Shown here one piece after another: positions 29,634 to 55,955 of a DNA stretch of 64,000 bases. How positions within the stretch are numbered: position 1 is the first letter of the stretch; the number at the start of each line of letters is the position of its first letter. The notes beneath the pieces are model-generated. The model saw only the letters and a list, made by a program, of their open reading frames with translations. It had not been told where the DNA came from and did no database searches. The position numbers and the translations under genes are program-made. Location: sequence record ON922919, one strand, 5' to 3'. The stretch is from Escherichia phage vB_EcoM_PD205.

Positions 29634-30077
29634 ATGGATTTGTCATTCTTAACAGGCAACCAAACCCCACAGCCAGCTGCTATGTCTTGGATGTCTAATA
29701 ACAATCAGAACTTTAATACCCCGGCTATGAACTATAATCCTGGTGCAGCTATTGGTATGGGTACTAATTTGGGAGCATCTACCCCTACTTCTTTCATGTC
29801 TGGTTCAGCTAATCAGTTGGGCATGAATGTACCCACCTTCCAGTTAGGACTAGGTGCACTTGGTTCATTAGCTAATATCTATAGTGGTTTCCAGGCTAAT
29901 AAGTTAGCTAAAGACCAGTTGAACTTTGCTAAGAGTGTTACTAACACTAACCTGAATAACCAGATTAAGTCTTATAACACTGCACTAGAAGACCGTGCTC
30001 GCAGTCGTGCTGTTGCAGAAAACCGTGACCAGTCTTCAGCTGATGCTTACATTGCAGCTAATAAATTAACCCGTTAA
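29634..30077 (+). CDS. hypothetical virion protein
   Basis: ORF track start 29613 is TTG; ATG 29634 with AGGAGAA RBS chosen. Confidence 0.4.
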   Translation: MDLSFLTGNQTPQPAAMSWMSNNNQNFNTPAMNYNPGAAIGMGTNLGASTPTSFMSGSANQLGMNVPTFQLGLGALGSLANIYSGFQANKLAKDQLNFAKSVTNTNLNNQIKSYNTALEDRARSRAVAENRDQSSADAYIAANKLTR

Positions 30078-30089
30078 TAGGAAACCATC

Positions 30090-32045: not shown

Positions 32046-32063
32046 AATACTTCATACTAATAA

Positions 32064-32088
32064 AAGCCCTACGGGGCTTTTTTCTTTA
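32064..32088 (+). terminator. rho-independent terminator (AGCCC-UACG-GGGCU + UUUUUUCUUU)
   Basis: Hairpin 32065..32078 followed by T-tract. Confidence 0.65.
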
Positions 32089-32148
32089 ACTGGCTTACTG
32101 TAGAGTAAGTTACCTATATACGATATAAGTTTGAATAGGAAACATGCT

Positions 32149-41100: not shown

Positions 41101-42903
41101 AAAGATGAAATGGCTAAAGCTAAGTCTGATAGTCGTGCAACCTTGAACCAGTACAAAGGGTATATCCCTAGCGAGAACAAACAGGGAGTTAACCTGATTG
41201 TTGCTGAAGATAGTCAGTTCTCTGATTTGATTGAGAAATCCTATGTACGTCTGGGTACTTATCAGGGTAGTTCTGCTAACCGTGGTGCAGCACGTAGTTA
41301 CTACTTTGCACCGGTACAGGCACAGGCTCCATTCTCACAGGGTATCCTACAGAACGTTCGCAATACTGCTGGTGGTGTAGACCTTGGTACAGGCTTTACG
41401 ATGGGAACCATGGTAGCTGGTCGTATCACTGACAAACCTTCCGTAGACCGTATTACTAAAGCACTGGCTCGTGGTGAACGTGGTAATGAACCACTGCTGC
41501 CTGTATATGATGCCAATGGTAATGTGATTGCTTACGAGCAATCTATTGACCCTAATATGCTGAAGCACATTGAAGGTGAGAACCATCTTGCTCGTGCAAT
41601 TGGTGTATGGCGTGGTCGTCAAGTAGAAGAAGCTAAGGCCCAGCGTTTCAACGATATTCTGATTGAGAATCTGCACAGCATGTATGAGAACGACATTAAG
41701 ATGTCTGCTTCTAATAAGTCCCAGTACGTTAACCTTCTTGGTTCTAAACTGGACCCAGTAACTGCCGATGCTCTTAAACTGATGAACAGTGAAACTCGTC
41801 AGAAAGCAGAAAGTCTGTTTGGTCCGGGTGAGTTGTGGGTACGTCGTGACATGCTTAATGATGCTTTAGGTTATCGTGCAGCTTCTGTGGGTGATGCCTG
41901 GTCTGGTAATTCTCGTTGGTCCCCAGAAACACTGGATACCTTCAAGAAAGCTATGCTTGGTGTCTTCGGTAACCGTGCCTATAAGTATGTAATGGGTGGT
42001 GAGAATCTGGTTCAAAACTTAGTTAAAGAAGCTAAGACTCTGATTGTAGTTAAATCAGTAGTCGTACCTGCTGTTAACTTCCTGGCTAACCTTTACCAGA
42101 TGGTTGCTCGTGGTGTACCTGTTAAGAATATTGCTAAGAGCATTCCACAGAAGACTGCTGAGATTAACCAGTATCTGAAATCTCGTCTGCGTCAGGTAGA
42201 TGCAGAAGCAGAGTTACGTGCAGCTACTAACCCGAACCAGATTCGTAAGCTGAAGGCCGAGATTCAGTCCATCACGGATAGCCATAAGCGTTTAAGTATC
42301 TGGCCTCTGCTGGAAGCTGGCGAGTTCTCCTCAATTGCAGATGCTGGTATTGGACGTGATGACATCCTGATTACTGAAGGTAAACTTCACGAGTACATGG
42401 ATAAGCTGGCTGATAAGCTGCCTAAGTCTGTACGTAACGCAGGACGATATGCACTTATTACTAAGGATACTGCTCTGTTTCAGGGTATCCAGAAGACGGT
42501 TGAATACTCTGACTTTATCGCTAAGGCAATCATCTATGATGAACTGACTCAGCGTAAAGGTAAGACTCGTGAAGAAGCACTTGGACGTGTAACGGAAGAG
42601 TTCATTAACTATGACCGTTTGCCAGGTCGCTTCCGTGGGTATATGGAAAGTGTTGGTCTGATGTGGTTCTACAACTTTAAGATTCGTTCTGCAAAAGTTG
42701 CAGTGTCCATGATTCGTAACAACCCAGTCCATGCTGCTATGGCTATGTTGGCCCCAACTCCTACCATGTTTGGTAATGTTGGTCTGCCTATTCAGGATAA
42801 CATCTTTAGCATTGCTGCACAGGGTAACCTTGGTTACTCCTTCGGTTTCGGTCAAGGTTTACGTGCCCATAACCTTAACCCTTGGCTCAACCTTACTAAC
42901 TAA
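32149..42903 (+). CDS. virion-encapsidated RNA polymerase (N4 vRNAP-like giant protein, about 3584 aa)
   Basis: ORF track 32131..42903 begins at TTG; ATG 32149 with AGGA RBS chosen; 10.8 kb single ORF; central region carries T7-like motifs (KRGIAKNPLTITIYGSG motif B-like, MTIGTGDGMMMQT motif C-like). Confidence 0.85.
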   Translation: MSTFDRLAGFADSITNAKQVDVSTATSRKQAAQGQSPFQLTPDNAYNLQTGRVGNLGIGAYEPGSLQADFTQASPLEIINKYGNEQGLQILNSRANAADAVRQDLSKQRTNAEAFGDILSGVGLGVANTLGGIAALGTGLVNDNAGASIASGLDWLNKGVHNLQSDALNARRNVVQNQNVISAQENDKLYKQDIAKGESELVASLSRIGRDAYDSVTNTLDNGMAATDGLAEGVGSLFTGGPLIRGVSALGKVMVGGDKAVKGITLAAELGSRPARIAQSAGRIAAPAIAIGGMEAGGAYQQTANEIMEMPFSELAAKSPVYQQHIKDGLSPEEARRQTASETGITAAGLTAPVAALTAPLVSKFELNPLKVGSLAGAGSNMLRETVEEGIQSGTSQLAQNKAIQGNVDAKRDLLKGVGEQTGLGALYGFGSAGVAQAPGTTVKAAGAAVGPAVRTTLAGASLAGKALAKVASPITTILVQRGEEVAKRNEQASPVSDATVNAAAQEATAQAEQAQATVQEAVDAMDISPEEKTAATQYAADLTQAMKFDPVELEQASPTIREAVSGSTNRVEAIQKMADLVNTAEDPNVQMEAAIQMYDNIMSMDSFINRDPGALANLEQGSPAAAIVDQFSGLMANVQNTPKVLRAFRAIHSMIQEQAEAGKLKATEEANQAQANNIAMAADMSPEVLDADSVNMVLKHASEGKITLGNRQRAALQSAAALLQGAREFDAKAEELGLRPQDIVSKQIKTDESRSNEGQYSALQHAKRIRSAYNSGNFDLASAYLDDFMKFAQHMQNKVGALNEHLISGNADKNKSVHYQALTPSREWVRSRTGLGVNPYDTKSVKFAQQVGLEAKTVADIANALATAYPELNVSHVKVTPLDSRLDKPAAQVVKEFRQGNLDAAQSQQTNEPVNQVDETPVTKQEPVTPTVQTKPSVSEAVKTEPTNKESNPQTAKEPENQSEKQDTIKQSTESERDAYVKENTISQDTLNKYGDRRESPWLFADGTVVGSNGDHISLSDVFGHDGYRDMSLDTGAIRSTFYKGSEQPFVSLQLFDNQKLTPEQFNTVQSFVEANNALIQVGVDTSGRNTNNVKKEEVSLAQLKADYTVGGKPLSEMETVFPVYNNDKTPNQFLKAFTLPEEPKSRTIGSESPLTDVKKALSSVARFEAFTQKENNALTSDVIKRYQDLFDFGETLKTTLSDRLAKFLANKNVGKRFAEGTEANRWVGGKLLNIVEKDGDTFKFNDQLLETAVLAGLQWRLTATQNAAIKDMKDVAAITGVEASLLPEGILADFENAQTLVEATNSLAQKIESYWGLNRNPNAPLGYTKGIPMAMATEILSSLIEMGEVKESMLDVSEIDPESNKTVGLYTIEKLDDNDAINKFPTAIEEAVLVEPVEKLYLGDDIPSVAQTQLRNPAVKNTPEQKAALKAEQATEFRVHMPMVNFYEALGRDNILELMGAGALTPELLNVNTAKSLEGKNLSVSMAYDSLFGVINQIKEQENGLDTPIHYGYNMTRVGRMQMLGKNNPQSSKLVREAILPTFSTIDLSNENSQTFSDFQLGLAQALGIKVHKMSREVMSDELTKALEGKLKPAVDMMVEFDKSGHLPTDAVDILKTSLGNDKSFVALMALMEYARYLNSDDRANFNTPLYVEADGVTNGPINAMVLMTGGKFTSDWIKNTAKGGLFFGKAGKTMNEHHSHEDSVDLYEASTNSLQQALNELRSTYRNNVPVTNQMKHLQKLMDLFIKDFNLNEDGTLDLKRGIAKNPLTITIYGSGARGIAGKMVSAITDTIYERFSDVLQARAADPSISPAMAMFGKEAASEADAQAMLDTFLTSMEALTGNVPVMRKGELSIQQAEGALSGKLDPQKFTVSGNALKNLQENMLHLFVEPMRTGIRNTVGEGLMHSTENLQKATQIQSLVLQDMFQQAVQAKLTEKEKDPTWKKGDFLTQKELNEIQASLSPLAPMIETGSQTFYIAGSENTDVANQVLATNLDDRMRVPMSIYAPSQAGVAGIPFMTIGTGDGMMMQTLSTMKGAPKNTLKIFDGMNIGINDITDASRKANEAVYTSWQGNPIKNVYDSFAKFMKNVDFSKLSDETKQAIAKSALEYDQREGATDDLLRVGAEQIERNLRNIALGVDIRHKVMDQVQVTVDQMAAVGAPYVNNGKISLEGLTVDQQVAKLNELFDAELNKRRDAVRAAKAEPVKEVPAMEQVGRVLKSGVRLLSNTAIAKLAKEMSPEQQAVLKEIQKSLAAKDYKVVYGTPSQLDAYAIEKNITRPAPEDIEAAEAGNAYGWTNFEDKTIYLVTPSLETLVHELVHASTFESVLAHYEGTPNEAVQNIEDLMNQFLTLDVKDESPAVREAYADALNTINGHLSNGFIEPAMAKAAALNEYMAWGLTNRELIGKQKKTTALKTMVQAVYEAIKRLVFGRKKAPANADDMFSGLLFNSAVVMRGQAPTAAVAKDTTLFHNKAYGENTRLEGLGKTFDKLITDYIGSEPVQQVIRKGKFSDAVVNATKVTRDVQAHGFTMNMQEQRLFTNIVAALATEAAINPAALARAQEYYTHVTKNLTVEAFMADPDSTNPADRYYAQQKFDTIMGANNIEFDAQGRSSLLPTFVGLAMVSEEVRKVLADIPVMKVDKKSGNTVDAMLTNIGTAAMASLNARVAGDTKATNVQEGMDALAQTIMQTSLNAESFYDSVATPTGNAIDRANQYLVDSIDVLSTRALEGAREVAANTKNPLVKGAAHAAQLIAAIATEKNGSIVAEGVMAAMNQGKVWQPFHDLVNDLTGRTKSNASVYDLIKAVRAQVQADRQQFREHLPTTIASKFSRKLTNDEWRAMHTGMGKTDLAVLRDTMSLDEIRDLLTDQKIVDREVNKLEADLQKQAGRNWPLINRKSKQLAQYMINGTVGNNLLRNATAISRLLGERKTTRSVVDVAQLDKLITLYALEAMSKTDREMLSSLAQTEIEGMDFATSYLVGQRKDEMAKAKSDSRATLNQYKGYIPSENKQGVNLIVAEDSQFSDLIEKSYVRLGTYQGSSANRGAARSYYFAPVQAQAPFSQGILQNVRNTAGGVDLGTGFTMGTMVAGRITDKPSVDRITKALARGERGNEPLLPVYDANGNVIAYEQSIDPNMLKHIEGENHLARAIGVWRGRQVEEAKAQRFNDILIENLHSMYENDIKMSASNKSQYVNLLGSKLDPVTADALKLMNSETRQKAESLFGPGELWVRRDMLNDALGYRAASVGDAWSGNSRWSPETLDTFKKAMLGVFGNRAYKYVMGGENLVQNLVKEAKTLIVVKSVVVPAVNFLANLYQMVARGVPVKNIAKSIPQKTAEINQYLKSRLRQVDAEAELRAATNPNQIRKLKAEIQSITDSHKRLSIWPLLEAGEFSSIADAGIGRDDILITEGKLHEYMDKLADKLPKSVRNAGRYALITKDTALFQGIQKTVEYSDFIAKAIIYDELTQRKGKTREEALGRVTEEFINYDRLPGRFRGYMESVGLMWFYNFKIRSAKVAVSMIRNNPVHAAMAMLAPTPTMFGNVGLPIQDNIFSIAAQGNLGYSFGFGQGLRAHNLNPWLNLTN

Positions 42904-42931
42904 ATGAAAAAGCCCCCCTAATGAGGGGCTT
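42901..42931. terminator. hairpin at convergent junction (AAGCCCC / GGGGCTT, 7 bp stem); U-tract only on minus strand
   Basis: Stem 42910..42916 / 42925..42931; overlaps vRNAP stop; on minus strand followed by UUUCAUUUA, so likely terminates the 42967..43200 transcript. Confidence 0.5.
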
Positions 42932-42966
42932 CTACTAATACTCATACTAGATGTGCTGTAAATGAT

Positions 42967-43200
42967 TTATTTACATTTTCCCCACATCTTAGGTTTACGC
43001 CCCTCGCTTGGAAATTTACCAGTCTCTTTAATCTTCCGTAATGTTTCCTCTGATGGGAACCACAGGAATGAGAAGTAAAGTTTCTTGGCTACGTAACGAG
43101 TTACTCCCAGTTTCTCTGAGATTTCATCGAATGAATATGTACGAACAGTATTGTTGAGAATGGCCTCACGAACAACAGTGGTAATAGATACTTGTGTCAT
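42967..43200 (-). CDS. hypothetical small protein, possible HTH DNA-binding
   Basis: 77 aa; FDEISEKLGVTRYVAKK HTH-like; AGGAAA RBS. Confidence 0.35.
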   Translation of the reverse strand: MTQVSITTVVREAILNNTVRTYSFDEISEKLGVTRYVAKKLYFSFLWFPSEETLRKIKETGKFPSEGRKPKMWGKCK

Positions 43201-43212
43201 GTGTATTTCCTA

Positions 43213-43254
43213 TAAATGAGAAAGCCCTCACTAGGAGGGCTTGTTTTGTTTTGG
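43213..43254. terminator. terminator-like hairpin (AGCCCTC-ACUAG-GAGGGCU) with U-rich tail on plus strand
   Basis: 7 to 8 bp stem 43222..43242 followed on plus strand by UGUUUUGUUUUGG; lies between two minus-strand genes, so strand of action is ambiguous. Confidence 0.4.
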
Positions 43255-43323
43255 CTTATAGAGCCTTACTACTTTGTCGGGTAGTTCAGTACCTTTCGGT
43301 AAAAACTACCTTACACCTTTGAA

Positions 43324-43704
43324 TCAGATTGTACAACCACCACCATCACAGGTATTGTTTTCTGCAAAGGAAGCCAGAGCTTTAGCAGTCTCTTCTTTCT
43401 CATGCAGTGCCTGACGTAGCAGGTAACCCTCTAATTCCCAAATCTTATTGAATGCATTTTCATATGCATACTGACGACCTTTTTGCTCATCATAGATAGT
43501 CGGGTCTACACAAGCAGATACGCCTTCAACTTTGAATCCATTTTCCAGGATGATAATGCAATGGGTTACCAGACCCAGGTTAGCCAAATCATCTGCTGGG
43601 ATTGCTGAAGGGTCAACGAATGCAGACTTCACTGCGTCAGCACCATTAAAATAGTAGACGCTCTTAATCTTAGCTTCGATTGCTTCTTTACTTACTGTTG
43701 CCAT
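43324..43704 (-). CDS. hypothetical protein (possibly N4 gp49-like, by position next to vRNAP)
   Basis: ORF track 43324..43716; ATG 43704 with GAGG RBS preferred; family assignment from memory and position only. Confidence 0.4.
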   Translation of the reverse strand: MATVSKEAIEAKIKSVYYFNGADAVKSAFVDPSAIPADDLANLGLVTHCIIILENGFKVEGVSACVDPTIYDEQKGRQYAYENAFNKIWELEGYLLRQALHEKEETAKALASFAENNTCDGGGCTI

Positions 43705-43760
43705 TATTAGCCTCATAGAGTGGTTTGAGTTTGTACTTAAACATGATTGTGCTTACTAAT

Positions 43761-43791
43761 ACTCAAATAAAAAAGTCCCTCCGAAGAGGGA
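43761..43791 (-). terminator. rho-independent terminator (AGTCCCTC-CGAA-GAGGGACT; RNA loop UUCG) with U6 tract
   Basis: 8 bp perfect stem 43772..43791; minus strand continues UUUUUUAUUUGA; would terminate minus-strand transcripts coming from the tRNA-like island. Confidence 0.65.
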
Positions 43792-44587
43792 CTTAGTAGC
43801 TTTAACGCAGCTAACGAGGCTTGTATGAGTGCTGGGATTTGCAACTCCCAGCATATCCCCACCGTTTTAGCTGACGGCAAACAGAGATTGATAGTCTCAG
43901 AGGATACTTTACTCAGGCTAGGATTTAAGGAGTTCCTATTCTCCAGCGAAATTCCCGTCGAGGGGAATAACAATACAATAGCAGCCACTGGACTGTCTTA
44001 CCAGTGTTGTCTTTAGAGTGCAATGCAATCAGGACTATGTTACTGCTAAATAGGTTGAGTCATGCCAGACTTTAACTGGCTCCTTCTTCGCAATCCTTAC
44101 ATACCCCTACATAATTATTGCGTTAAGCTTTTTTGTTTAAGTTTAAGTGAAGGCGTTCTTGCTGACTCATAATAGGGTGGGCGTTTGACGAATGACTAGT
44201 TCGTTACTACCCGTTTGCCATAAGTACCTGGCGACTTTGGTTTGAGGTGGGAGTCCGATTCCTGTACAGCCTTACCGTTCACACATTGGCAGCGTATCTA
44301 GAATAGCACTTCCAGCAACTGGATTTAACTGTTACACCTCAAATCTGGTAGGGGCGTCCAGAAGTCTCATCTGGTACTTACGCTGTCGTATGGTTACGAC
44401 TTACCCCCATAGTTAGTTGCTCGGATCACCCCCTTGACTAAAGTGACCTTTGAGGGGCTACGCTACACTATGTGTTTCATCCCATTACAGAGAATCATCA
44501 GGCGTATTAGTTGGTCACCCCGGATACCTACTTGCCGAGCATTGGTATCGTATGGCTCGTCCAATTAGAAGTAGCACTGTTGCAGTC

Positions 44588-44668
44588 GTCACTGCTCATA
44601 GGTAAGGATTCGAACCTTACAATACCATTGGTTTGCAACGTCGCTGTACCATTTCGCGTTCTATGCAA
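44588..44668 (-). tRNA. tRNA-like element (canonical T-arm, imperfect acceptor stem; anticodon not determined)
   Basis: Minus-strand TAAGG-TTCGAAT-CCTTA T-arm (plus 44597..44613); putative acceptor halves pair only over 5 central bp; cloverleaf not confirmed by eye. Confidence 0.25.
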
Positions 44669-44681
44669 TGCTACTTTGAAT

Positions 44682-44760
44682 TGGTTACCAGTGAGGGATT
44701 CGAACCCCCGGTTGGAGTCTATAGCTTACCGCAGCAGCCCTCCAATCTAGCGGTGTCACA
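44682..44760 (-). tRNA. tRNA-like element with encoded 3' CCA (anticodon not determined)
   Basis: Minus-strand GGGGG-TTCGAAT-CCCTC T-arm (plus 44693..44709) followed by ACTGGTA-A-CCA; matching 5' acceptor strand TACCAGT is found only 121 nt upstream, so the structure is non-canonical or interrupted. Confidence 0.3.
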
Positions 44761-44807
44761 CTTAGTCCAAACTTGAACATGTCAAGCCATCTCGTGCAAC
44801 TGGTAAT

Positions 44808-44880
44808 TGGTTCCGGCGTCTGGACTCGAACCAGAACACTCATGCCGTGCACGACACTAGTACCTACACCGGAATAAATT
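44808..44880 (-). tRNA. tRNA-like element with encoded 3' CCA (anticodon not determined)
   Basis: Minus-strand TCTGG-TTCGAGT-CCAGA T-arm (plus 44819..44835) followed by CGCCGGA-A-CCA; nearest complementary 5' acceptor (TCCGGTG) gives only about 63 nt; partial duplicate of the 3' region (CGTCTGGAC) at 44929..44937. Confidence 0.3.
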
Positions 44881-44992
44881 GCCAGGGATTCCACCTGGCT
44901 CCATCTGTTTTTATAGTCACTCAGATATCGTCTGGACTTGCTGTGGAGTGACGCACCATCTCACTCTTGAATGTTAACCCATTCCCAGCCCC

Positions 44993-45040
44993 ACAACACA
45001 CTCTACGGTTAAGATTATCGCGTGTGTTGTATGGTCTTGC
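44993..45040. repeat. inverted repeat, 9 bp stem (ACAACACAC ... GTGTGTTGT) with 30 nt loop
   Basis: Read directly; stem 44993..45001 pairs with 45032..45040. Confidence 0.5.
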
Positions 45041-45046
45041 TGGTCA

Positions 45047-45127
45047 CAACAGGTAAGAGCATTTAACAGAAGATAGGTCTGATTGCCTCGGATAATTTCT
45101 CAGTAGCCTAAATGCTCTTACCTGTTG
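45047..45127. repeat. 19 bp perfect inverted repeat (CAACAGGTAAGAGCATTTA ... TAAATGCTCTTACCTGTTG) with 43 nt spacer
   Basis: Verified base by base: 45047..45065 is the reverse complement of 45109..45127. Confidence 0.75.
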
Positions 45128-45412
45128 GTTCCCCGTTTCTAATACACGGACGGGGACACTCCATGGTCGTTTGATAATCAGGACGACTCACTCCTGACTG
45201 ACGCTTGGCTTATTAGGCTGCCATCAGAACAACATCATCGTTTGCATTTATGTTATTGGTTCGTTTCTAAAAAACCGCATAATCGCTTACGAAAACTATC
45301 AAAGAGTACACTAGCACAGGTAGCTACCCTGCCGTCTTCTCTATTTACACCGGCTACAGTGTAAACCTCCGCACGTTAGCCTAATGTACTCATTGATAGG
45401 ATGTCAGTAGGT

Positions 45413-45482
45413 CGGGGGCTGGATTCGAACCAGCGAGAGAAGTAGCGACCATCTGCACATGCCTACGTGCTACCCCGACCAT
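45413..45482 (-). tRNA. probable tRNA gene (about 70 nt; anticodon uncertain, candidates GCU or CGC depending on loop register)
   Basis: Minus strand: 7 bp perfect acceptor stem (GTCGGGG / CCCCGAC), 4 bp D-stem (GCAC / GTGC) with GG-containing D-loop, perfect T-arm GCTGG-TTCGAAT-CCAGC; anticodon stem imperfect and variable loop short, so needs tRNAscan-SE or ARAGORN confirmation. Confidence 0.45.
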
Positions 45483-45657
45483 TATAATAGGAGGGAGGGG
45501 ACGAGTCCTCCCTTTATACCCTATATTGCATGTAAGACCTAACAATTCGATGCTGTAGGTAGCTATGCTATCCGACATTTAACCCAGCCCATATAGGGGC
45601 TTATGTGATTAAAATGCTCAACATTGAGCGGTTAGTTTGATAAGGGATCTGAAGCCT

Positions 45658-45727
45658 TATCCCAAAGATACTAACCTTTGGGATATAGCCTATCATTCAG
45701 AAATGGCCCCTATAGGGAGAGGCCATT
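45658..45727. repeat. two adjacent strong hairpins (10 bp stem 45658..45685; 7 bp stem 45702..45727 whose loop reads CCTATAGGGAGA)
   Basis: TATCCCAAAG-ATACTAAC-CTTTGGGATA and AATGGCC-CCTATAGGGAGA-GGCCATT read directly; loop of second hairpin matches the T7 promoter initiation core CTATAGGGAGA. Confidence 0.5.
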
Positions 45728-46299
45728 GATTAACCCGAATGTTGCTTTACATTTGCTGTGATAACCTATTCTTAAAATAGTCTACCTGACGGATGGGCAT
45801 AAACCCTAGCGTCAGTGCCATACGGCAAAGATTAAGTTAAGAAAGGTTATGATAGGAGTTCCTATCTCAAAGGATTCTGACAGAACCCTTCACGATATTA
45901 ACTACTCTTTTTCAATGCTTCAACTTCACCCTCTTTATACCAAGCATACGGTATTAAGATTTTGCAGCCTTATGAATCAATGTGGAATGCTTTGTTTCCT
46001 TCAGCAGGTTCTCCACCCATGAAAGAACTAACCTTTCCATTGAGCCAGTGAATAGTAAATTTGTTCATATTAACCCCGGTTGAACCAATGGACTTCGGAG
46101 AGTATTAAAGCCCACTGGTTCGGTTGTTGTTATTCTGGCGGCTTGTCACCACCGTGTTTACCACTGCATTTCCACAGGATAATGACAGTGATGATAAAAG
46201 CTATGTATGGAGCCGACACGTCTATAATCCTGACCAGTAGTAGCATCAGGACTATAAACACTACCACACCTAGCAGCAGCTTCTGAGCCACCTACCAGA

Positions 46300-46779
46300 T
46301 TAACTACGTTTCAGGCCAGCGAACAGTGAAGGCTTCGCAGCAGGTTTCTCTGCTGGTTCTTCAGCCTTAACTTCCTCCTGCACAACTTCTTCTTGTGCTT
46401 CTGGTTCAGCTACTGCTTCTTCAGGTTCCGGCGTAGAACTCTCGTTCTGACCACCAACTGAGGTCGGGGCATCTACTTTCGGTCCCAGAGGTGCTCCCTC
46501 CTTTACTGATTCAGTAACAACTTGCTCACCAACCTCAGGTTCTGAGGTTGAGTCAACAGGACGATGTTTGGCTTCTTGTGGATTCTTACGAGGACGGCGG
46601 GTCTTCTTCTCTACCAAGGGTGGAGTGTCATCACTATGACCGACCTCTTCATTGATACCAATAGTGGCAGTACCATCTGCATTCACCAGGATATTAATGT
46701 CCCCGGCAAGATTAACTTGTTCATTTACATAAGCTTCAATAGCAGCTTCTACTTCAGACTGGTTCAGAACGATTTGCAT
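46300..46779 (-). CDS. hypothetical protein with highly acidic Pro/Glu-rich C-terminal half
   Basis: 159 aa ORF; first gene after the non-coding island on minus strand. Confidence 0.4.
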   Translation of the reverse strand: MQIVLNQSEVEAAIEAYVNEQVNLAGDINILVNADGTATIGINEEVGHSDDTPPLVEKKTRRPRKNPQEAKHRPVDSTSEPEVGEQVVTESVKEGAPLGPKVDAPTSVGGQNESSTPEPEEAVAEPEAQEEVVQEEVKAEEPAEKPAAKPSLFAGLKRS

Positions 46780-46780
46780 A

Positions 46781-47335
46781 TTATGCCTTTATTAATTTAA
46801 TGAGATTCTGGAAAGCTGGTAGATTTACCCCAGCGTGGATTGCACCGATTGCATCAGCTAAGTGCTCATTCTTATTCAGAAGTTTACCTTTCTTATCCGT
46901 GAGCCAGTTGGCTTCAGGATAGATAGCATGAGCAGCACGAATCATCGTGTCTTTGGATGCAGTTTTATCACCGACCAGTGCAAGTTTGTTTTCAATTGGG
47001 GATACTTCAAAGATTGGGCAACCCAATGCACGGAATGCACCGATTAATCCTACGCATACACCATAGGACTTCATACCATTAGCAGACTGAGAGCCTACTG
47101 GTACTTCTACGAATACTGCTTTAGCAGACCGTAACCATTCCTCACAACCAAGAAACAAATCATGGGCAGCTTGTATATCTTTGGAGTTGGTTCGAACTTG
47201 TTTGTTGTGGTCAACTTCAGTTTGAATCAGTTTAAGTTCGACCTGCTCGAAGACACCGGATTCAATGTCCAGCATCCCACGAGCTAATCCCCAATTGCGG
47301 AGGCTAATGTCTGCACCGACAATTGGGATTTTCAT
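46781..47335 (-). CDS. RuvC-like Holliday junction resolvase
   Basis: 184 aa; IVGADISLRNWG (N-terminal catalytic Asp), FVEVPVGSQ, EHLADAIGAIHAG resembling RuvC acidic motifs. Confidence 0.5.
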   Translation of the reverse strand: MKIPIVGADISLRNWGLARGMLDIESGVFEQVELKLIQTEVDHNKQVRTNSKDIQAAHDLFLGCEEWLRSAKAVFVEVPVGSQSANGMKSYGVCVGLIGAFRALGCPIFEVSPIENKLALVGDKTASKDTMIRAAHAIYPEANWLTDKKGKLLNKNEHLADAIGAIHAGVNLPAFQNLIKLIKA

Positions 47336-48138
47336 TAACGCTTACCGAACAGTGATTTACCACCAGCTGGAGTAGTACCTGTGCCAGCACCTGCACCTGG
47401 TTTAGGAGGCAAACCACCTTTACTATTACCACCAGTAGAACCCTTGGTCTTATCACGGGTTTTGCCTTTGTTCTTCTCTAACCATGCTGCGTAGAATACA
47501 GCTAGTTCTGGGGTCAGTTCTTTCTCAGCCTTCTCTGCTTCCTGAGCCTCGACGACTGTGACCAACAGCTCCGGATGAAACACTTTCTGAATCTCGTTTA
47601 CTTCACGAGTTTCACCGGAGTCAACATAACCGTTGTCACCCTTAACCTGCTTGGATTCCAGAACCTTTTCCAGAGCGAAGGTAACAGTCTGTCCTACCAG
47701 GTCAACTGGAACCATGACGGATTTATTAACTTCTGCTTTAGCATCGAAGTCATAGACTTTGACAATCTTCTCTTCGAAGTCTGCTTCAGGCAGTTCAGTA
47801 CCAGTAGCCATCAGCATCATGTCGTTAATGACAGTGTAGCCAGGCAGGAAGTATTCTTTACCGTTCTTCTCGTAAGTCGGCTTGTTGCCTTTAGCATTAC
47901 CAGAAGTGAAGTACACCTGAGCACGGAACTCACCGGCAGGTACGCCGTCAGAGTTTTTCAGGTCTTCAATAATTAACTGCATCCAGTCTGCACCAGAATC
48001 AGCTTTGCCTACATAGGCTACTTTTACAGTACCGGTGTAGATATCGGATTCTTTTGCACCGAATCCACCACCACCAAGGGAGTCTTTAACAGCTTCAACG
48101 TTTTTGGTTTTTTCTTTCAGATTACTGAACAATGACAT
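47335..48138 (-). CDS. putative single-stranded DNA-binding protein (N4 SSB-like by size/position) with Gly-rich C-terminal tail
   Basis: 267 aa; AGGAAAA RBS; C-terminal GGNSKGGLPPKPGAGAGTGTTPAGGKSLFGKR; identity inferred from size and synteny only. Confidence 0.35.
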   Translation of the reverse strand: MSLFSNLKEKTKNVEAVKDSLGGGGFGAKESDIYTGTVKVAYVGKADSGADWMQLIIEDLKNSDGVPAGEFRAQVYFTSGNAKGNKPTYEKNGKEYFLPGYTVINDMMLMATGTELPEADFEEKIVKVYDFDAKAEVNKSVMVPVDLVGQTVTFALEKVLESKQVKGDNGYVDSGETREVNEIQKVFHPELLVTVVEAQEAEKAEKELTPELAVFYAAWLEKNKGKTRDKTKGSTGGNSKGGLPPKPGAGAGTGTTPAGGKSLFGKR

Positions 48139-48177
48139 ATGATTTTCCTAATAAGTGATTAACAACCAGGCAAACGC

Positions 48178-48930
48178 TTAAGCGTAGTATTCAGCCAGGT
48201 GGTCTAAGAGTTTCTGGGCATCGTTATCAATGTAAGTCTCGGACTTATCGAACATACCCATTGGGGAACGAAGTCGTTTACCAACAGACTTCTTGGTTGG
48301 ACGGGTCTGGAATACGTGCTTATACCCTAAGTCACGTTCTTCTTCCGTAATTTCTAACATCTTGTTCCCATACTTCTCCAGTTCTTTAATATCTACGCGT
48401 TCTGCATAAACTACTGTAGAGAAGTAGGCTTCAAGCCCATTATTCTTCAGAGAGCCTTTCACTGGGATGAATGTTTTCATCACACCAGCAGCTTCATCCA
48501 GTTCGTCTTTAGCATGAGCAGTAATGATTACTGGCTTACCAAACTTAACGACTTTTTGTTGCAGCAGTATTTTAAAGAACTGTGCAAAGTCACCCCATGC
48601 TTTCTGCGTATTTGCAGAAGGCAGAACATACTGGGATTCCAGCATATCCATCATGAAGGTTGCTGAGTCAATGATGATACCATCAACATCGTCTGCCATT
48701 TCTCCACCAGGAGATGCAACATCAAATGCTTCCCAAATCTGGTATGGGTCTTCAATGTTGTAGGTATTGAATTTGTTACGGAAAGGCAGACGTTTACCTG
48801 CTTCAGTATTCAGATAGAGCCAGCGTTCCTGGTTCCGGATGTTACGCAGTGATGCTGATTTACCACTCGCTGAGAATCCTGCAATCAGGATTAGCTGAGT
48901 GTTCATATCATTGGGAATTACTTCGGACAT
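48178..48930 (-). CDS. P-loop NTPase (possible nucleotide kinase or recombination ATPase)
   Basis: 250 aa; Walker A LIAGFSASGKSA, Walker B-like GIIIDSATF; GAGGAA RBS. Confidence 0.45.
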   Translation of the reverse strand: MSEVIPNDMNTQLILIAGFSASGKSASLRNIRNQERWLYLNTEAGKRLPFRNKFNTYNIEDPYQIWEAFDVASPGGEMADDVDGIIIDSATFMMDMLESQYVLPSANTQKAWGDFAQFFKILLQQKVVKFGKPVIITAHAKDELDEAAGVMKTFIPVKGSLKNNGLEAYFSTVVYAERVDIKELEKYGNKMLEITEEERDLGYKHVFQTRPTKKSVGKRLRSPMGMFDKSETYIDNDAQKLLDHLAEYYA

Positions 48931-48986
48931 TATTTTTCCTCATTTAATTTAGGAGTCCTTCAAACCAAAGAAAGACTCCTGTTTGC

Positions 48987-51140
48987 TTACTTGCCAGCGA
49001 AGCGTTTAGCCACGGTGACCATTACGGTTGCATTCAATTCATCATCTGGTAATGGATTAGTCAGTTTCTTATTGAATGAGTGGACGGCTTGCTGTACTTG
49101 GGCAAAGTCCCAACCACTGTCAACCAATGCCAGTGCGTACTTAATCATTTGATTATTACGATTACCGGTAGCAATACGACTAGCGAACCAACGCTCCAGA
49201 TTATCCAACGACTGTACTTCCTTCATCTGGTTCCGGAACTGCTCGTTCTTACTAGTACGAGGAATAAAATCACGCACGTCCAACAGATTTGCTTCAAGAT
49301 TGTAATGATAGGAACCAGTCTCGCAGGACATCCACTTCTTGGCTCGTTGGTTAGCAGATTCATCTGTTTCGAACGGTAGCCAAGACATGACGTTATTCAT
49401 GAACTCTTTGTATTCCTCAGTGTCGAGGTGTAATTCATAGTTCATTGGAATAATCAGTCGGAATCGGTTCTCTTCATCAGAATGGCGTTTAGTGGTATAG
49501 GTCATGAACTTATATTCCTTCATCAGTTCATGGCACGTATGCAGAGGTACTCCACCATCACAGTCAATAACAATCATGTTAAATCCTGGAATAACGTTCT
49601 CTTCAGAACGATGCCCATTCTTCATGTGATGGTTTACCCAATGCATACCTGGAGCTTGGGTTAATACATGCAACTGGTCGAACGGTACACGTTCACCAAT
49701 GTAGTCATAAGCAAAGCTATCACTATATGCCACTATCATCTCATTGATGTCAGTCTCTTTCAGAGTCTCACCACGGAAGAACTCAATACCTTCGTTGAAG
49801 GTTTTCTTAATGATGATATGCTGTTTGTAGCCCCATGCTGTAGCAAGAGTCATCATCTCATTACGAGCTGCATTGCCACTCTTATAGAACGGTAACGACT
49901 CCACCAAGTCAGCATGAGTTACTTCTTTACCTACAGAAGCAATGTACTTAGCCAGCTTCACATAAGCCTTCTCGCGATTGAGGATTGTCTGAAATGCTGC
50001 CCCAGATTCCTCTACGAGCAGGATTGCTTGTTTAAGGTGAGACATTTCAATGAATGAACTCTGGTCAACAAACGCCAGTGCTCCAGCCAGCTTAAGAGCT
50101 TTGAAGTAACGGTGGGAAATTTCGGCCTTACGAATTTCTTCGTGGTCAGCCATAGCTTCTGCTTGTTTCTCACAATCAATCTTGTAAGTAATCAGAGCAA
50201 TACCCACAGCATCTTCCACAACCATCTTAAAGCCAAACAGGTTTGGGTCAGCCAAACTATGGAAGTGGTTGGCCCACTTGCCAAGAGACTGTACGTTATC
50301 CTGCTTAATCAGGTTACGGTAGATTTCTTCTGGAGACATTGTTGCATGTGCTCGCTTGTCTAAATGCCCAATCGCAAACAGACATCGACGTGCATACCCT
50401 GTATCCAGAAAGTCATAGAACTGATCTTCGGTCTGACCACCATCCAGTAACTTACTTGGCGTACCAAATAACAACAGGTTAGCTGGAGTCTTACCATCCA
50501 GTTCTTCACCACGAACACTTTCAGCAGTGTTCTTGGTTAACTTCTGCTTAACCTTACCCTGGTCATATAATTCCAGGAACAGGGTTAATACATCTGTGTT
50601 AGCCAACAGGTTTGAACCAATTTCATCAATCTGAAGGTTGATTGAACCACACCCAGCCATTAACAGTTTATGCCGTAGTTGTTTAACTGCTGGTGGAGTA
50701 CCTGAGTCAAACGTAAACGGATATGCCCCAGCACGCTTATACTCTGCTTCAACTTTATCAAACTCATCATTCTGGTCTGTACCTTGTCGAGCAGCACGTT
50801 CGTTAGCAATCTTCCATAAACGGTCATTTGCAATGACGGGCATGGTGTCTTCCATAAAACGTTTACGGAAGCCAGTCATAAACCCGTCTTCAATAATATT
50901 TACCGAGTGACCTTTACCGAAGCCAGACGTTGCTAATGCCATAGCGTAAATGTTGACTGGTAAGTCACCACGGTCTTTAGTGACAATGGTTGCACCCATG
51001 CAGGATGCCATTTTAGCCAGGAAGTAGGCTACTTCGACACGGAAGAATCCTCTGTCGTTGTTTTGTGTCTTGTTACACAGCACGTCTACAATTTCTTCAA
51101 TTGCAGGGTGGTGAGTGACTCCGGTCAGGTCAATACTCAT
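48987..51140 (-). CDS. putative DNA primase / replication initiation protein
   Basis: ORF track 48987..51197; ATG 51140 (MSIDLTGV...) overlapping upstream stop preferred; C-terminal region primase-C-terminal-like; assignment tentative. Confidence 0.4.
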   Translation of the reverse strand: MSIDLTGVTHHPAIEEIVDVLCNKTQNNDRGFFRVEVAYFLAKMASCMGATIVTKDRGDLPVNIYAMALATSGFGKGHSVNIIEDGFMTGFRKRFMEDTMPVIANDRLWKIANERAARQGTDQNDEFDKVEAEYKRAGAYPFTFDSGTPPAVKQLRHKLLMAGCGSINLQIDEIGSNLLANTDVLTLFLELYDQGKVKQKLTKNTAESVRGEELDGKTPANLLLFGTPSKLLDGGQTEDQFYDFLDTGYARRCLFAIGHLDKRAHATMSPEEIYRNLIKQDNVQSLGKWANHFHSLADPNLFGFKMVVEDAVGIALITYKIDCEKQAEAMADHEEIRKAEISHRYFKALKLAGALAFVDQSSFIEMSHLKQAILLVEESGAAFQTILNREKAYVKLAKYIASVGKEVTHADLVESLPFYKSGNAARNEMMTLATAWGYKQHIIIKKTFNEGIEFFRGETLKETDINEMIVAYSDSFAYDYIGERVPFDQLHVLTQAPGMHWVNHHMKNGHRSEENVIPGFNMIVIDCDGGVPLHTCHELMKEYKFMTYTTKRHSDEENRFRLIIPMNYELHLDTEEYKEFMNNVMSWLPFETDESANQRAKKWMSCETGSYHYNLEANLLDVRDFIPRTSKNEQFRNQMKEVQSLDNLERWFASRIATGNRNNQMIKYALALVDSGWDFAQVQQAVHSFNKKLTNPLPDDELNATVMVTVAKRFAGK

Positions 51141-52379: not shown

Positions 52380-52684
52380 TATTCCCCCTTGGGGATCATG
52401 TTTGCCTGGAACTCTGGTTCAGACATCAGACCCAGGTTGCTGAGAGACAGATAAACAATGTCTTTCAAATCAACCGAAGTGTCGAAACGTTGGTCCAGAC
52501 TAATCTTCAGGGAATGATTGGCACGAGCCAAATCTTTGTAGGTCACATAAGGTTCATCAGTGAGCAACATTGTGTTCATGGTAAGCAGGGAACCATCATC
52601 CACTTTAGGAAGTTGGAATACTACCTGTGCTGCTACCATCCAATGATATTTTTTGACTACAGTTTCTTTAGTACTTTTGGTCAT
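52379..52684 (-). CDS. hypothetical protein
   Basis: 101 aa ORF, TAATG/ATGA overlaps. Confidence 0.35.
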   Translation of the reverse strand: MTKSTKETVVKKYHWMVAAQVVFQLPKVDDGSLLTMNTMLLTDEPYVTYKDLARANHSLKISLDQRFDTSVDLKDIVYLSLSNLGLMSEPEFQANMIPKGE

Positions 52685-53511
52685 GCGAATGCCTTTTGAA
52701 TTATTTGATGAACTTCTTCTGGGGTAGCGTGATTTGGAATTTCAATCTCGTTAGCCCACGTTGGGTAGAACAAGGATAGTTCCCCACCCAAGCCAACTTC
52801 TGGATGAGCAATATCGGGATGGTCTTGCCAGTTAACGGCCTCAACCAAGTGCTTGTTCGTGAACTGCAAGGTATCCATGTTGTCACGAATCATGAAGTAC
52901 TGAGCATCGTGAATGTGAATACTAGGACGTATATCTAACCTGAACTCACTGGCTCTGACTTTACGCATAAATTCTGAACCAGCACGATTATTTAGTAGAC
53001 ACCAGCTTTGCCCTAAAGCATTACCAGCAGTTCTGCCTTCTGCTTCTGCTTCATACGGAGTCTTACATGTCCCACGTAATACTTGAGCCAGTAAAGGAGT
53101 ACGCACTCTCAAACCGAATGCGGCAGTAACATAACCAGTTTTGGCAGCTTCGTCTAGTTTAGCCTGAACCCACATGTCGCTAACTACATAGAGGTCGTGA
53201 TAACGTTTCTCTGTAGTCTTAGCCTTCTCTTCAGAGAAGCCACAGTTTTTCATTAAGCCCATATATGTACCACCATAAGTAAGCAAGAAGGTTGGAGCCT
53301 TCGAGTCACTACGTAATGATTTGTACTTATGCTGGATGGAGTTAATGGATTCTACCGTGTCTTCTATGTCTGGCATCTGCTCACCAAAGTAAGCATATGC
53401 ACGGAGACTGTGTCCATCATAGCCCGTTGAACTACCTACCTTTTTTACAGATTGAATCTTTTTGCCAGTGAAATCATGAGTTGATTTTGGCAAGTTGTCG
53501 AATTGCGACAT
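52681..53511 (-). CDS. family A DNA polymerase, C-terminal fragment (motifs B and C)
   Basis: 276 aa; GYDGHSLRAYAYFG, KAPTFLLTYGGTYMGL (motif B-like K...YG) and SIHIHDAQYF (motif C-like HD); separate ORF downstream of HNH gene. Confidence 0.7.
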   Translation of the reverse strand: MSQFDNLPKSTHDFTGKKIQSVKKVGSSTGYDGHSLRAYAYFGEQMPDIEDTVESINSIQHKYKSLRSDSKAPTFLLTYGGTYMGLMKNCGFSEEKAKTTEKRYHDLYVVSDMWVQAKLDEAAKTGYVTAAFGLRVRTPLLAQVLRGTCKTPYEAEAEGRTAGNALGQSWCLLNNRAGSEFMRKVRASEFRLDIRPSIHIHDAQYFMIRDNMDTLQFTNKHLVEAVNWQDHPDIAHPEVGLGGELSLFYPTWANEIEIPNHATPEEVHQIIQKAFA

Positions 53512-54016
53512 CTCTGCGGTTCCTCCTCATAACCTCATCCCACTTATGACGGATACCGAGTCTGTCAGCAGTGGTTCTGAGCATTTTATGCAGTGTTTCT
53601 GCACGTCTGCCTATTTCTTGGGCGAGTTCACCTACTTGCTTACCTTCCAGTACTTCAAATAGGTACTTCTCCTTGTCATTTGCAGACATATATCCAGGAC
53701 GTAATCCTGTTCGCAGGGCGTGTTCTGAATTTTGGGATGCTGTACACCATTCCAGATTATCCTTATGGGGATTCTGTTTATTCCCATCCAGATGATTTAC
53801 ATACTTGTATCCATATGGATTGGGAATAAAGTGTTTAGCTACCAGAATATGAACCAATTCCTGTTGGTGCGTACCATCCCCTTTCGCTAAACCAACCTTA
53901 AGATACCCATTAGGATTTACTGTTGGTTTAAGCGGGGAATTGTTAGCAAGATTGGTGATGGAACCATCCTCTGAAATTAGATAACGGTTCTCAAAGTAGG
54001 CTATTGGTATAGGCAT
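53474..54016 (-). CDS. HNH homing endonuclease inserted between DNA polymerase fragments
   Basis: ORF track 53474..54115; ATG 54016 with GGAGAGGA RBS; IAYFENRYLISEDGSITN (NUMOD4-like) and HNH-type region YVNHLDGNKQNPHKDNLEWCTASQNSEH; overlaps end of polymerase N fragment and start of C fragment. Confidence 0.7.
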   Translation of the reverse strand: MPIPIAYFENRYLISEDGSITNLANNSPLKPTVNPNGYLKVGLAKGDGTHQQELVHILVAKHFIPNPYGYKYVNHLDGNKQNPHKDNLEWCTASQNSEHALRTGLRPGYMSANDKEKYLFEVLEGKQVGELAQEIGRRAETLHKMLRTTADRLGIRHKWDEVMRRNRRDVAIRQLAKINS

Positions 54017-55955
54017 TATAAAATTCCTCTCCGGTAAATGTTTTCCCATCATAAACAATTGTATCATCATCTCGGATATGATGGTCAACTCCATCGATAG
54101 TAACGCTATACACAATTACCCCCATGTACACTTTGAGCTTCTGTGGGTCTTTAGTAGTTAGTGCAGAGATTCTGTCTTCCAGCGAGGCGAAATCCAAGCC
54201 GCAAAATATCCAGCCTGGAGGAGCTTCGAAGCATTTCTTAATCTTCTTGGCATATTTAGAGCCGGATGGAATTGTTTGTAGATTTGGCTCTGAAGCCGAT
54301 AGCCTACCGGAGACTGTGCCTCCCAGATTGAGGTTACCGAACAGGTAGTGCCAGCCATCCGGTCCCGGTTGGGCATTCCGGAAAGCTGGTATAAAGCTAG
54401 TGATAATCTTATCCACGAGCTTATAGTCGATAAGTGCATTGAGCAGTTCCTTAACATCTTCACTTTGCGTATGTGTACGCAGTGCTTTAATAGTGTCACC
54501 GTCAGTAGCAGGTTGCTTGCTCTTAGTAAGACCAAGAACTGGTAAGCCAATATAATCAAATAACAGCTTCTGTAGCTGCGGTCCGGAGTTAGGGTTAAAC
54601 TCGATGTCACAATCAGCAAGTGTTACTTGTTTCTTCTTGAGCTTAGCATTCTTATCGTCTACCCATTCCTGACGAAGCATCAGGGTGAAGTTCTTCATGA
54701 GCTTAGACTCACGAATAGTTTTCAGAGCCTGGTTCCTGTCAGTTTCCATCTCTTTAGCTACTTGGTTAACGGTATCCATATTCATGGGCATACCGGTTAA
54801 CTGCATCTGGATAATATCTTCACAAGCTGGCTTAAAGATGTTGTTGTAAACATCCAATTGGTCATCAGCAACGAGAGTATCCCAGTGCTTCTCATAAGTG
54901 TACCACGTACATAAACCATCAATGAGGTTGTAACGTAACAGTTGCTCATTAGGAATAAGACGAATGTCTTTAATATCATCCTGAGCATAGTTACCAGCAT
55001 ACTCCTGAGCCTGGTCTTTCAGACTAAGGTGATTACCAGCACAACTGTTAGTAGCCAGGTAGGTGATTAACTTAGTGCAATCCCAGTTACGCAGCATGAT
55101 TTCCATGCCATGTAGTAAACCTTCTGTATCAATCAGGTTATCCATGAATAACTGATAGATAAGCACATACACGTCATAGCTAATGTTGTGATACATCTGC
55201 CGTTGGGTGTACTTAATGAAGAACTCACGTAGAAGATTTCGAACAATATCATTTCTGTTGATACGCCCATAAGGTGCTTCAGTAGCTCCAGGTATCGGCT
55301 CGTAGTCCACATTAAAGGCTATGCCTTGTGTCTTACTCCAACAGAATGTAATTGTTCCTATACCGGCGTTATAGTGCTTTAAACCGAATGCTTCAATGTC
55401 TATAGCCAGTGGCTTATTCATCTCAAGCAACTGGTCTAGCCAGGCTTTAATCTTTTCTGGGGTATCCGGGTAGGCTTCAAACTCAATGATTCCTTGACCT
55501 GGTTCAGCATACTGCCCACGTATGTGGTTAAGTAATGCATCCATACCCTGAGCAATCTTGGATTTCACTACAGGAGGATCATAAAAGACCTGCCTGTAGC
55601 TAGGTGCATAGATAACTTTCTGCTTACCCCATACTGAGTCACAAACATAGCCGAGGTTAGCCTCTGCTTTTGCTTCTTTAGTCAGTATTTTAAAGTAATC
55701 AGAATCGGTACAGATTATGTATTGAGTTTCTGCATCATCCAGTACTTGTTGCAGTTCCTGCTGTATGAACTCCTTAATCTCCCTTGCAGGAGTCTTCTTC
55801 TTGCCGGGGGCAGAATGAAGTTCAATGAAGATGAAATCTTCCATGCTTAGGTCATTGGGCAGCAGGTAGGTTTTAATCATCTCCTCCCTTCGGATTTGAT
55901 GACCGAGGATAGCAATGGGGTACTTACCCGTATCTTGAGAGGTGATGTAACGCAT
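53991..55955 (-). CDS. family A DNA polymerase, N-terminal fragment (3'-5' exonuclease domain through polymerase motif A)
   Basis: 654 aa; exo motifs (LAIDIEAFG, YHNISYDVYVL, YNLIDGLCTWYTY), GRLSASEPNLQTIP and motif A FCGLDFASLEDR; ends before motif B. Confidence 0.75.
   Translation of the reverse strand: MRYITSQDTGKYPIAILGHQIRREEMIKTYLLPNDLSMEDFIFIELHSAPGKKKTPAREIKEFIQQELQQVLDDAETQYIICTDSDYFKILTKEAKAEANLGYVCDSVWGKQKVIYAPSYRQVFYDPPVVKSKIAQGMDALLNHIRGQYAEPGQGIIEFEAYPDTPEKIKAWLDQLLEMNKPLAIDIEAFGLKHYNAGIGTITFCWSKTQGIAFNVDYEPIPGATEAPYGRINRNDIVRNLLREFFIKYTQRQMYHNISYDVYVLIYQLFMDNLIDTEGLLHGMEIMLRNWDCTKLITYLATNSCAGNHLSLKDQAQEYAGNYAQDDIKDIRLIPNEQLLRYNLIDGLCTWYTYEKHWDTLVADDQLDVYNNIFKPACEDIIQMQLTGMPMNMDTVNQVAKEMETDRNQALKTIRESKLMKNFTLMLRQEWVDDKNAKLKKKQVTLADCDIEFNPNSGPQLQKLLFDYIGLPVLGLTKSKQPATDGDTIKALRTHTQSEDVKELLNALIDYKLVDKIITSFIPAFRNAQPGPDGWHYLFGNLNLGGTVSGRLSASEPNLQTIPSGSKYAKKIKKCFEAPPGWIFCGLDFASLEDRISALTTKDPQKLKVYMGVIVYSVTIDGVDHHIRDDDTIVYDGKTFTGEEFYNAYTNSLL

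Follow-up and report, generated by a model that had tools for sequence, protein, structure and literature searches.

An HNH homing-endonuclease cassette divides the family A DNA polymerase gene of an N4-like Escherichia phage

Gene layout of the split gp39 locus

We examined the DNA polymerase locus of Escherichia phage vB_EcoM_PD205 (ON922919), a G7C-like, N4-like phage of the genus Gamaleyavirus, family Schitoviridae, in a stretch of 64,000 nucleotides (nt) that we call the window and whose positions serve as coordinates throughout. Here the polymerase gene, gp39, lies in two collinear halves with an endonuclease gene between them. Each half has its own start codon, ribosome-binding site and stop codon, and the gene is uninterrupted in relatives. 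The three open reading frames (ORFs) that an initial annotation had read from the letters alone were all found, on the minus strand, and the locus contains the following features (aa, amino acids).

53991..55955, minus strand: polymerase N fragment, 654 aa plus a TGA stop, assigned from the ORF list, Pfam, collinearity and AlphaFold2
54126..55955, minus strand: native gp39 part of the N fragment, with the N-terminal/exonuclease region, thumb and motif A, ending ...KLKVY
53431..54125, minus strand: mobile cassette of 695 nt (tail segment, HNH gene, head segment), delimited by alignment
53994..54125, minus strand: N-fragment tail, 44 aa, MGVIVYSVTIDGVDHHIRDDDTIVYDGKTFTGEEFYNAYTNSLL, with its stop codon at 53993-53991
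54025..54032, minus strand: Shine-Dalgarno-like GGAGAGGA, 8 nt upstream of the HNH ATG (54016) and within the tail coding sequence, read from the sequence
53474..54016, minus strand: predicted HNH homing-endonuclease gene, 180 aa from the ATG, with NUMOD4 and HNH_3 domains, I-HmuI-like
53521..53528, minus strand: Shine-Dalgarno GAGGAGGA, 9 nt upstream of the C-fragment ATG (53511), read from the sequence
53431..53511, minus strand: C-fragment head, 27 aa, MSQFDNLPKSTHDFTGKKIQSVKKVGS
52681..53511, minus strand: polymerase C fragment, 276 aa plus stop, assigned from the ORF list, Pfam, PHROG 2573 and 17, and collinearity

The split gene is confirmed as a family A DNA polymerase of the N4 gp39 type. 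The 654-aa ORF matches Pfam DNA_pol_A at profile positions 11-179 (E 1.9e-23) and the 276-aa ORF at positions 200-303 (E 3.3e-9), PHROG 17 covers the N and then the C fragment in order, and motifs A (FCGLDFASLEDR), B (KAPTFLLTYGGTYMGL) and C (HIHDAQYF) follow one another across the two fragments at the positions first assigned to them. The native part of the C fragment begins GYDGHSLRAY (53424) and holds the DIH-type motif together with motifs B and C. No Pfam exonuclease domain was found in the window N fragment at E<=0.01; the precomputed matches of its homologues include DNA_pol_A_exo1. The AlphaFold2 model of the N fragment has a mean predicted local distance difference test score (pLDDT) of 95.1, and the model of the homologue P0179 has a Pol I fold, for which Foldseek returns G20c Pol I, Klenow and Bst polymerase at E 1e-28 to 1e-31.

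The gp39 orthologues of G7C, St11Ph5 and N4 each consist of one ORF, 2580 nt long and encoding 859 aa. Alignment to these three shows that the N and C fragments are collinear with intact gp39 and separated by a net insertion of 695 nt, and that the native sequence is complete across both fragments except for two drifted T-D codons. The initial annotation had described a family A polymerase interrupted between motifs A and B, with an HNH gene overlapping the fragment on either side; Pfam and alignment agree with that description, establish the two ORFs as contiguous parts of one polymerase and locate the insertion point. An assembly error is excluded, because phage SP5M (99.6% identical over the insert) and six further independent genomes or contigs carry the same insert with the same ORF layout.

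Comparing ten alleles, we placed the insertion after the Y codon and before the T codon of native KLKVY/TDGYDGHSLRAY (KVY/TDGYDGH; junctions are marked by a slash), in the loop that leads from motif A to the DIH-type helix of the fingers. The uninterrupted site in G7C and St11Ph5 reads AAGGT(A/G)TATACCGATGGCTATGATGG, and alignments show the cassette to be absent from St11Ph5, G7C, Bp4 and N4. The codons directly after the head, TCA ACG (53425..53430), are the drifted native T-D, and the metagenomic contig L009 still has T-D there. The 695-nt insert contains zero non-coding bases, every base lying within an ORF. MAFFT aligned native TATACCGAT (Y-T-D) with TATACCAAT at 54011-54003, which would imply an in-frame insert of 117 nt and another of 578 nt; we judged this match a coincidence and ruled the placement out, since that sequence is missing from other cassette lineages and L009 keeps T-D at the head end, and we therefore treat the insert as one 695-nt block.

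It had also been suggested that the tail (DGVDHHIRDDD) and the head region (GYDGHSLRAYAYFG) are two copies of one polymerase segment. This is not borne out, because GYDGHSLRAY is intact native sequence, present in the C fragment only, and the insertion point lies just upstream of it. The tail, to which the peptide TFTGEEFYNAYTNSLL belongs, does not derive from the polymerase but is the first half of a cassette-borne insertion domain of ~77 aa.

The HNH gene shares 26 nt with the end of the N fragment and 38 nt with the start of the C fragment. Its product matches HNH_3 (E 4.3e-7) and NUMOD4 (E 7.9e-5) in Pfam, as well as HNH families in PHROG. Among solved structures it is closest to I-HmuI, a nicking enzyme (PDB 1U3E), which it matches at E 8.6e-11 with the catalytic H and N in register. 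By its domains, catalytic residues and sporadic distribution we classify it as a putative I-HmuI-like homing endonuclease. The ratio of non-synonymous to synonymous substitution rates (dN/dS) of the gene is about 0.1 between lineages. A longer reading frame from TTG 54115 (213 aa) was considered and rejected: the upstream extension has no protein-level conservation between lineages, and ATG 54016 was therefore taken as the start. Within the HNH gene, the GAGGAGGA element falls on the codons for the conserved MRRNRR, and an equivalent purine-rich run occurs in other cassette copies. Between 52500 and 56200, a sigma-70 promoter scan gave 4 promoter-like sites, fewer than the shuffled mean of 8.1, and a terminator scan gave 5 terminator-like sites against 2.3 +/- 1.2 in shuffled sequence, none of them a coding-strand site at the cassette boundaries or between the ORFs.

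Two further observations concern the polymerase frame. A 153-aa ORF (window 54158-54619, minus strand) runs in an alternative frame within the N fragment; it is open also in SP5M, St11Ph5 and G7C and is probably a by-product of the conserved polymerase frame. In phage Bp4 (KJ135004.2, L004; 682-3148) the polymerase is annotated as two partial coding sequences (CDS), yet it lacks an HNH insert and can be aligned with intact gp39 over its whole length, so that frameshifts or sequencing errors are likely there rather than a biological split.

Distribution and exchange of the cassette

The same cassette occupies the same site in SP5M (MT682708), Pollock, Klebsiella phage Pylas and a dozen N4-species strains (including VEc25, PMBT57, AlfredRasser and Jura), and in the metagenomic contigs L009 (ENA ERZ27265955 contig k141_76125), L010 (Logan ERR12350041_260878), L016 and L018. 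Database records of SP5M, VEc25, PMBT57, Pollock and Pylas already annotate a DNA polymerase in two CDS together with an HNH homing endonuclease. Among carriers the HNH proteins are 69-99% identical, and the cassette measures 695 nt, or 689 nt in two of the seven copies measured (window, SP5M, Pollock, VEc25, Pylas, L009 and L010). The head has equal length and frame in five aligned copies (window, SP5M, Pollock, VEc25 and Pylas), and a homologous in-frame head ending at GYDGH is found in L009, L010, L016, L017 and L018. The 120 best-scoring database polymerases listed for the fused query are all (120/120) intact proteins of 859 aa, and the distribution of the cassette is thus sporadic.

Identity of the cassette and of its flanks was compared in four pairs of carriers.

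Window and SP5M: cassette 99.6%, flanks 92-96%
Pollock and VEc25: cassette 90.6%, flanks 67-69%
Pylas and L010: cassette 98.3%, flanks 65-66%
Pollock and Pylas: cassette 69%, flanks 80-81%

Since cassette and flank identities are incongruent, we regard the cassette as mobile. Sequence differences between the window and SP5M reach to within ~25 nt of the insert on its upstream side and to within 2 nt on its downstream side, and the flanks are St11Ph5-like in the window and G7C-like in SP5M. These sharp boundaries between different flanks mark the cassette, tail and head included, as a discrete unit that has moved laterally in recent times. The cassette of the window, in its different polymerase background, is a separate acquisition or a recombinant and not a copy of that in SP5M. 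The region from 30000 to 56100 of the window phage is itself mosaic: the polymerase flanks are 96-100% St11Ph5-like, and 30000-50000 is <=93% identical to PD38 and Bp4.

Two contigs depart from this arrangement. In L015 (ENA ERZ27239235 k119_136019), a homologous tail/HNH/head module lies at a second site (4045-4641), after ...YFRDEMPDI and ~25 aa downstream of the site used in the window; its HNH ORF, missed by the gene caller, is 32% identical to that of the window (E 1e-24). This second site suggests that the module may travel as a whole. In L017 (JGI 3300002242, KVWGV2_10026296; 4424-4446), the N fragment with its tail ends in TGA and is followed by a 17-nt spacer (TAGGAAAAATAAAAGAA), an ATG and the C fragment with its head. 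No HNH gene is present, and the split form thus persists alone.

Tail, head and a candidate two-subunit polymerase

We propose that a mobile HNH cassette has created a two-subunit polymerase, a reading to which we assign a probability of roughly 0.75. A free-standing I-HmuI-like HNH gene would have invaded gp39 within the three-part, 695-nt cassette. The three overlapping ORFs would be translated separately from one transcript, yielding a 654-aa N fragment with a folded 44-aa tail, a 180-aa endonuclease and a 276-aa C fragment with a 27-aa head, and tail and head would then re-associate non-covalently to give an active two-subunit enzyme. When N4-like phages infect the same cell, the cassette would pass from one to another: its HNH enzyme presumably cleaves or nicks the allele that has no insert, close to the insertion site, and repair from the cassette allele through the conserved ...KLKVY and GYDGH... 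flanks would copy everything between them. Several carriers, namely SP5M, Pollock, Pylas, VEc25, PMBT57 and AlfredRasser, have been isolated and propagated, so the interrupted gene must yield a working polymerase, and we infer that the split enzyme is active as two subunits.

An exhaustive profile search returned about 45-50 tail-bearing clusters at 50% identity, almost all of which terminate with the tail, and the residues VY.G..VY, HHIR(D/E)D, DG, TG and FY vary little or not at all; all but the first of these hold without exception in clusters that share less than 50% identity. The two exceptions among tail carriers are P0179, an intact 947-aa polymerase on a 63-kb N4-like contig in which tail-like and head-like segments are contiguous at the same site, and P0178 (truncated), where they are likewise contiguous. 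Both differ from the split forms solely by a linker that is 5 aa longer, at the point where the stop, HNH gene and start sit. The tail is homologous to P0179 residues 616-659 and the head to ~665-693, a short helix and a strand.

The AlphaFold2 model of P0179 (pLDDT 93.4; predicted template modelling score, pTM, 0.90) contains four strands and a helix at residues 619-654, with pLDDT about 80-85. A disordered linker follows at 655-667 (pLDDT below 50), exactly where split alleles have the stop, HNH gene and start, and after it come a short helix and a final strand at residues 684-690. In the model of the window N fragment the tail forms the same four beta strands and helix, with pLDDT 83-95. 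From the contiguous segments of P0179 and these matching folds we conclude that tail and head are the two halves of one small, beta-rich insertion domain of ~77 aa, cut in its linker. The halves would re-associate non-covalently and clamp the polymerase halves together; adjacency of tail and head is to be expected, because the first and last elements of an inserted domain must adjoin. Tail plus head gave nothing significant against Pfam (E<=10), PHROGs or a PDB profile, the best match being a beta-gamma-crystallin-like Y/F-x-G motif at E 0.27. A word-indexed protein search with the same query returned short proteins only, several of which are gene-caller fragments from further upstream inserts.

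More tentatively, and with rather less than even confidence, we suggest that the mobile unit is a three-part cassette bringing its own split 'clasp' domain, a non-covalent analogue of a split intein. An endonuclease could by this means colonise the middle of an essential gene with neither intron nor intein, and the second site in L015, the HNH-less split in L017 and the re-fused or ancestral form in P0179 might represent stages of one life cycle.

The fragments might cooperate just the same if tail and head were hitch-hiking exon sequence, co-converted from a donor polymerase and unneeded for assembly. An intact polymerase with the contiguous domain does exist (P0179), and gene conversion between shared flanks necessarily carries everything between them. 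We nevertheless consider this unlikely: the tail is constrained like the catalytic parts, with invariant residues across clusters below 50% identity, it is kept after loss of the HNH gene in L017, and the homologous module recurs at the second site, ~25 aa downstream, in L015.

Splicing, inactivation and known split genes

Several observations weigh against a two-subunit polymerase held together by tail and head. The head is less conserved than the tail, with dN/dS up to about 0.6 in comparison with Pylas, and the HH of the HHIRDD motif is missing from the contiguous-domain versions, so that the tail may do something other than docking. Divergent introns may escape the Rfam group I models: five loci (35 kb) scanned broadly at E<=1 gave no match, the intron of L009 described below included among the misses, and for that reason we used narrow scans with laxer filters, together with positive controls. 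The polymerase CDS of Pylas is annotated as a join, that is, spliced, and the announcement of Pollock calls the insert intron-encoded (PMC4319500), in both cases without evidence.

These annotators thus assumed an intron, and the initial annotation had likewise left the choice between two polypeptides and a self-splicing intron carrying the endonuclease ORF. In the family A polymerase genes of phages, such HNH genes are often carried by introns; SPO1 and SP82 (I-HmuI and I-HmuII) and T7-like phages have group I introns of this kind, with an HNH ORF. The closest solved relative of the window enzyme is I-HmuI of SPO1, introns are predicted in L009 and Vibrio phage JA-1 within the same gene family, and the 5' 150 nt of the insert has an RNAalifold z-score of -3.9. 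A spliced mRNA encoding a single polypeptide is nonetheless an improbable explanation of the window insert, as the following comparisons argue.

Narrow Rfam scans with the group I covariance model Intron_gpI (RF00028) found no match at E<=10 in the window insert or in the Pylas and L009 copies at the same site. As positive controls, the same kind of scan detected RF00028 at E 9.5e-5 in L009 4740-4938, within another insert of that N4-like polymerase, and at E 2e-5 in the polymerase insert of JA-1 (KC438282, L011). Three divergent copies are thus negative, against same-family controls at E about 1e-5. The second, upstream insert of L009 (4155-4994) is a predicted group I intron with a NUMOD4/HNH_3/AP2 endonuclease ORF that interrupts the PNLQ motif; its predicted exon junction, GATCCT/...G/AATTTACAA, restores P-NLQNMP, and the 94-aa 'middle piece' of the gene finder is probably exon 2 and not a separate protein. 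The JA-1 insert (3357-4152) lies at another site than that of the window, inside motif A (GLDFNSL/.../EDNVNILLTRDPNKLK), and contains an HNH ORF with non-coding flanks of 119-145 nt; it is likely a genuine group I intron. The two control introns have about 120-180 nt of non-coding flank, whereas the window insert has none: the 109 nt before the HNH ATG and the 43 nt after the HNH stop are all under protein-level constraint.

For the tail, comparisons between lineages give a proportion of synonymous differences (pS) of 0.43-0.81, a proportion of non-synonymous differences (pN) of 0.02-0.20 and dN/dS of 0.03-0.12, a constraint like that on the HNH gene and the polymerase. Among five aligned copies the sole length difference is an in-frame 6-nt deletion, and the variable columns number 11/12/27 by codon position. 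A 9-bp hairpin formed by CCAUCAUAU and AUAUGAUGG in the tail coding region (alifold z -3.9) was examined and rejected as an RNA element. Covariation is absent, and in L016 and L017 the pairing is disrupted by synonymous changes; because HH and YDG are kept while the hairpin is broken, we read the conservation as protein-level. In L017, where a 17-nt spacer stands instead of the HNH gene, the polymerase is still split, and this interruption cannot be an intron; in P0179 tail and head are translated as one domain. The absence of an intron core, the all-coding insert and L017 together argue against self-splicing, and between the two possibilities first raised we favour two polypeptides.

Inactivation of the polymerase by the insertion, with the phage relying on another polymerase or on one fragment only, is more improbable still. 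Both fragments are under strong purifying selection in lineages saturated at synonymous sites, the arrangement is maintained in cultured lytic phages of at least four genera as well as in many metagenomic lineages, and the annotations of the stretches on either side of the split gene, in the related phages examined, include no second polymerase gene.

Least credible is a split intein, or 'fractured gene', in which trans-splicing would ligate the halves and remove tail and head: the layout of N part, free-standing endonuclease gene and C part with short extensions is that of Dassa et al. 2009 (PMC2677866), and this polymerase family has a genuine C half at a different site (P0017, MGVRRVYDLEVEADHCYIANGVYVHN/SNPNLQ), but tail and head total about 71-77 aa, roughly half a Hint domain (hallmark total ~130 aa or more), the tail begins with M, V or L and never with Cys/Ser, the head lacks a terminal Asn followed by Cys/Ser/Thr (junctions ST/G, SS/G, TP/G and TD/G), and neither Pfam (E<=10) nor PDB profiles gave a Hint or intein match.

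Other split forms were seen in this polymerase family. P0017 (124 aa, ENA, from a ~1.5-kb contig) is a polymerase middle piece with the split-intein C half MGVRRVYDLEVEADHCYIANGVYVHN/SNPNLQTIP at its start and a window-type tail at its end; a split intein at the NLQ motif and the HNH cassette therefore occur together in some N4-like polymerases. In L010, a Cys-rich ORF of 218 aa (4364-5020) with no Pfam match splits the polymerase just before motif A (KAPP/GW). A tail of 25 aa (SCYLPNRAKLGTLIQSLKNTISGAK) is thereby added to the upstream piece and a head of 44 aa (MQDLLNKLVS...EE), also present in P0001, P0007, P0009 and P0014, to the 116-aa middle piece. This ORF may be another split-with-extensions cassette, leaving a three-piece polymerase.

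As an arrangement, the split gp39 belongs to the homing-endonuclease 'genes in pieces', a kind already known and annotated. Free-standing homing endonucleases divide nrdA of Aeromonas phage Aeh1 (mobE; Friedrich et al. 2007, PMC1851037), gene 60 of T4 (mobA) and gene 43 of Aeromonas phage 25 (seg43; review PMC2988022), and Fouts et al. noted HNH genes that split the polymerase gene in N4-like vibriophages (PMC3670811). In these systems the divided subunits have been shown to come together and function, and reassembly of the endonuclease-split NrdA of Aeh1 and of gp43A/43B of Aeromonas phage 25 provides an experimental precedent (PMC2988022); how split polypeptides assemble in the T4-type cases was left open by the same review. 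The window shares with these systems a free-standing endonuclease gene in an essential replication gene, two polypeptides and uninterrupted relatives. It differs in its host gene, a family A polymerase, in its endonuclease, which is I-HmuI-like HNH and not Mob or Seg, and in adding two conserved peptide extensions that between them form one small domain.

With the group I introns of L009 and JA-1 the cassette shares the endonuclease family, the host gene and neighbouring conserved target motifs, but RF00028 detects the non-coding flanks of those introns, and the native sequence is regained at their exon junctions; the window insert has neither such flanks nor such a junction. Fractured genes (Dassa et al. 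2009, PMC2677866) resemble it in their order of N part plus extension, endonuclease gene, and extension plus C part, and in residing in phage replication genes, whereas the extensions of the window are too short and lack any intein hallmark, so that any rejoining would be non-covalent. Our literature searches turned up annotation-level remarks on the cassette and no experimental work, and the one fresh point here is the split domain that the cassette carries.

For annotation, we recommend that the interrupted polymerase of this phage group be entered as two subunits with a free-standing endonuclease rather than as a spliced CDS, as in Pylas, or as carrying an 'intron-encoded' insert, as in Pollock. 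The locus offers a natural allele series at one site, with no insert, a contiguous domain, a split with HNH and a split without HNH, and this series together with the confidently modelled tail fold provides a testable candidate for the assembly interface of endonuclease-split enzymes. For engineering, the site is a permissive split point in a family A polymerase, and tail and head are possible natural association tags.

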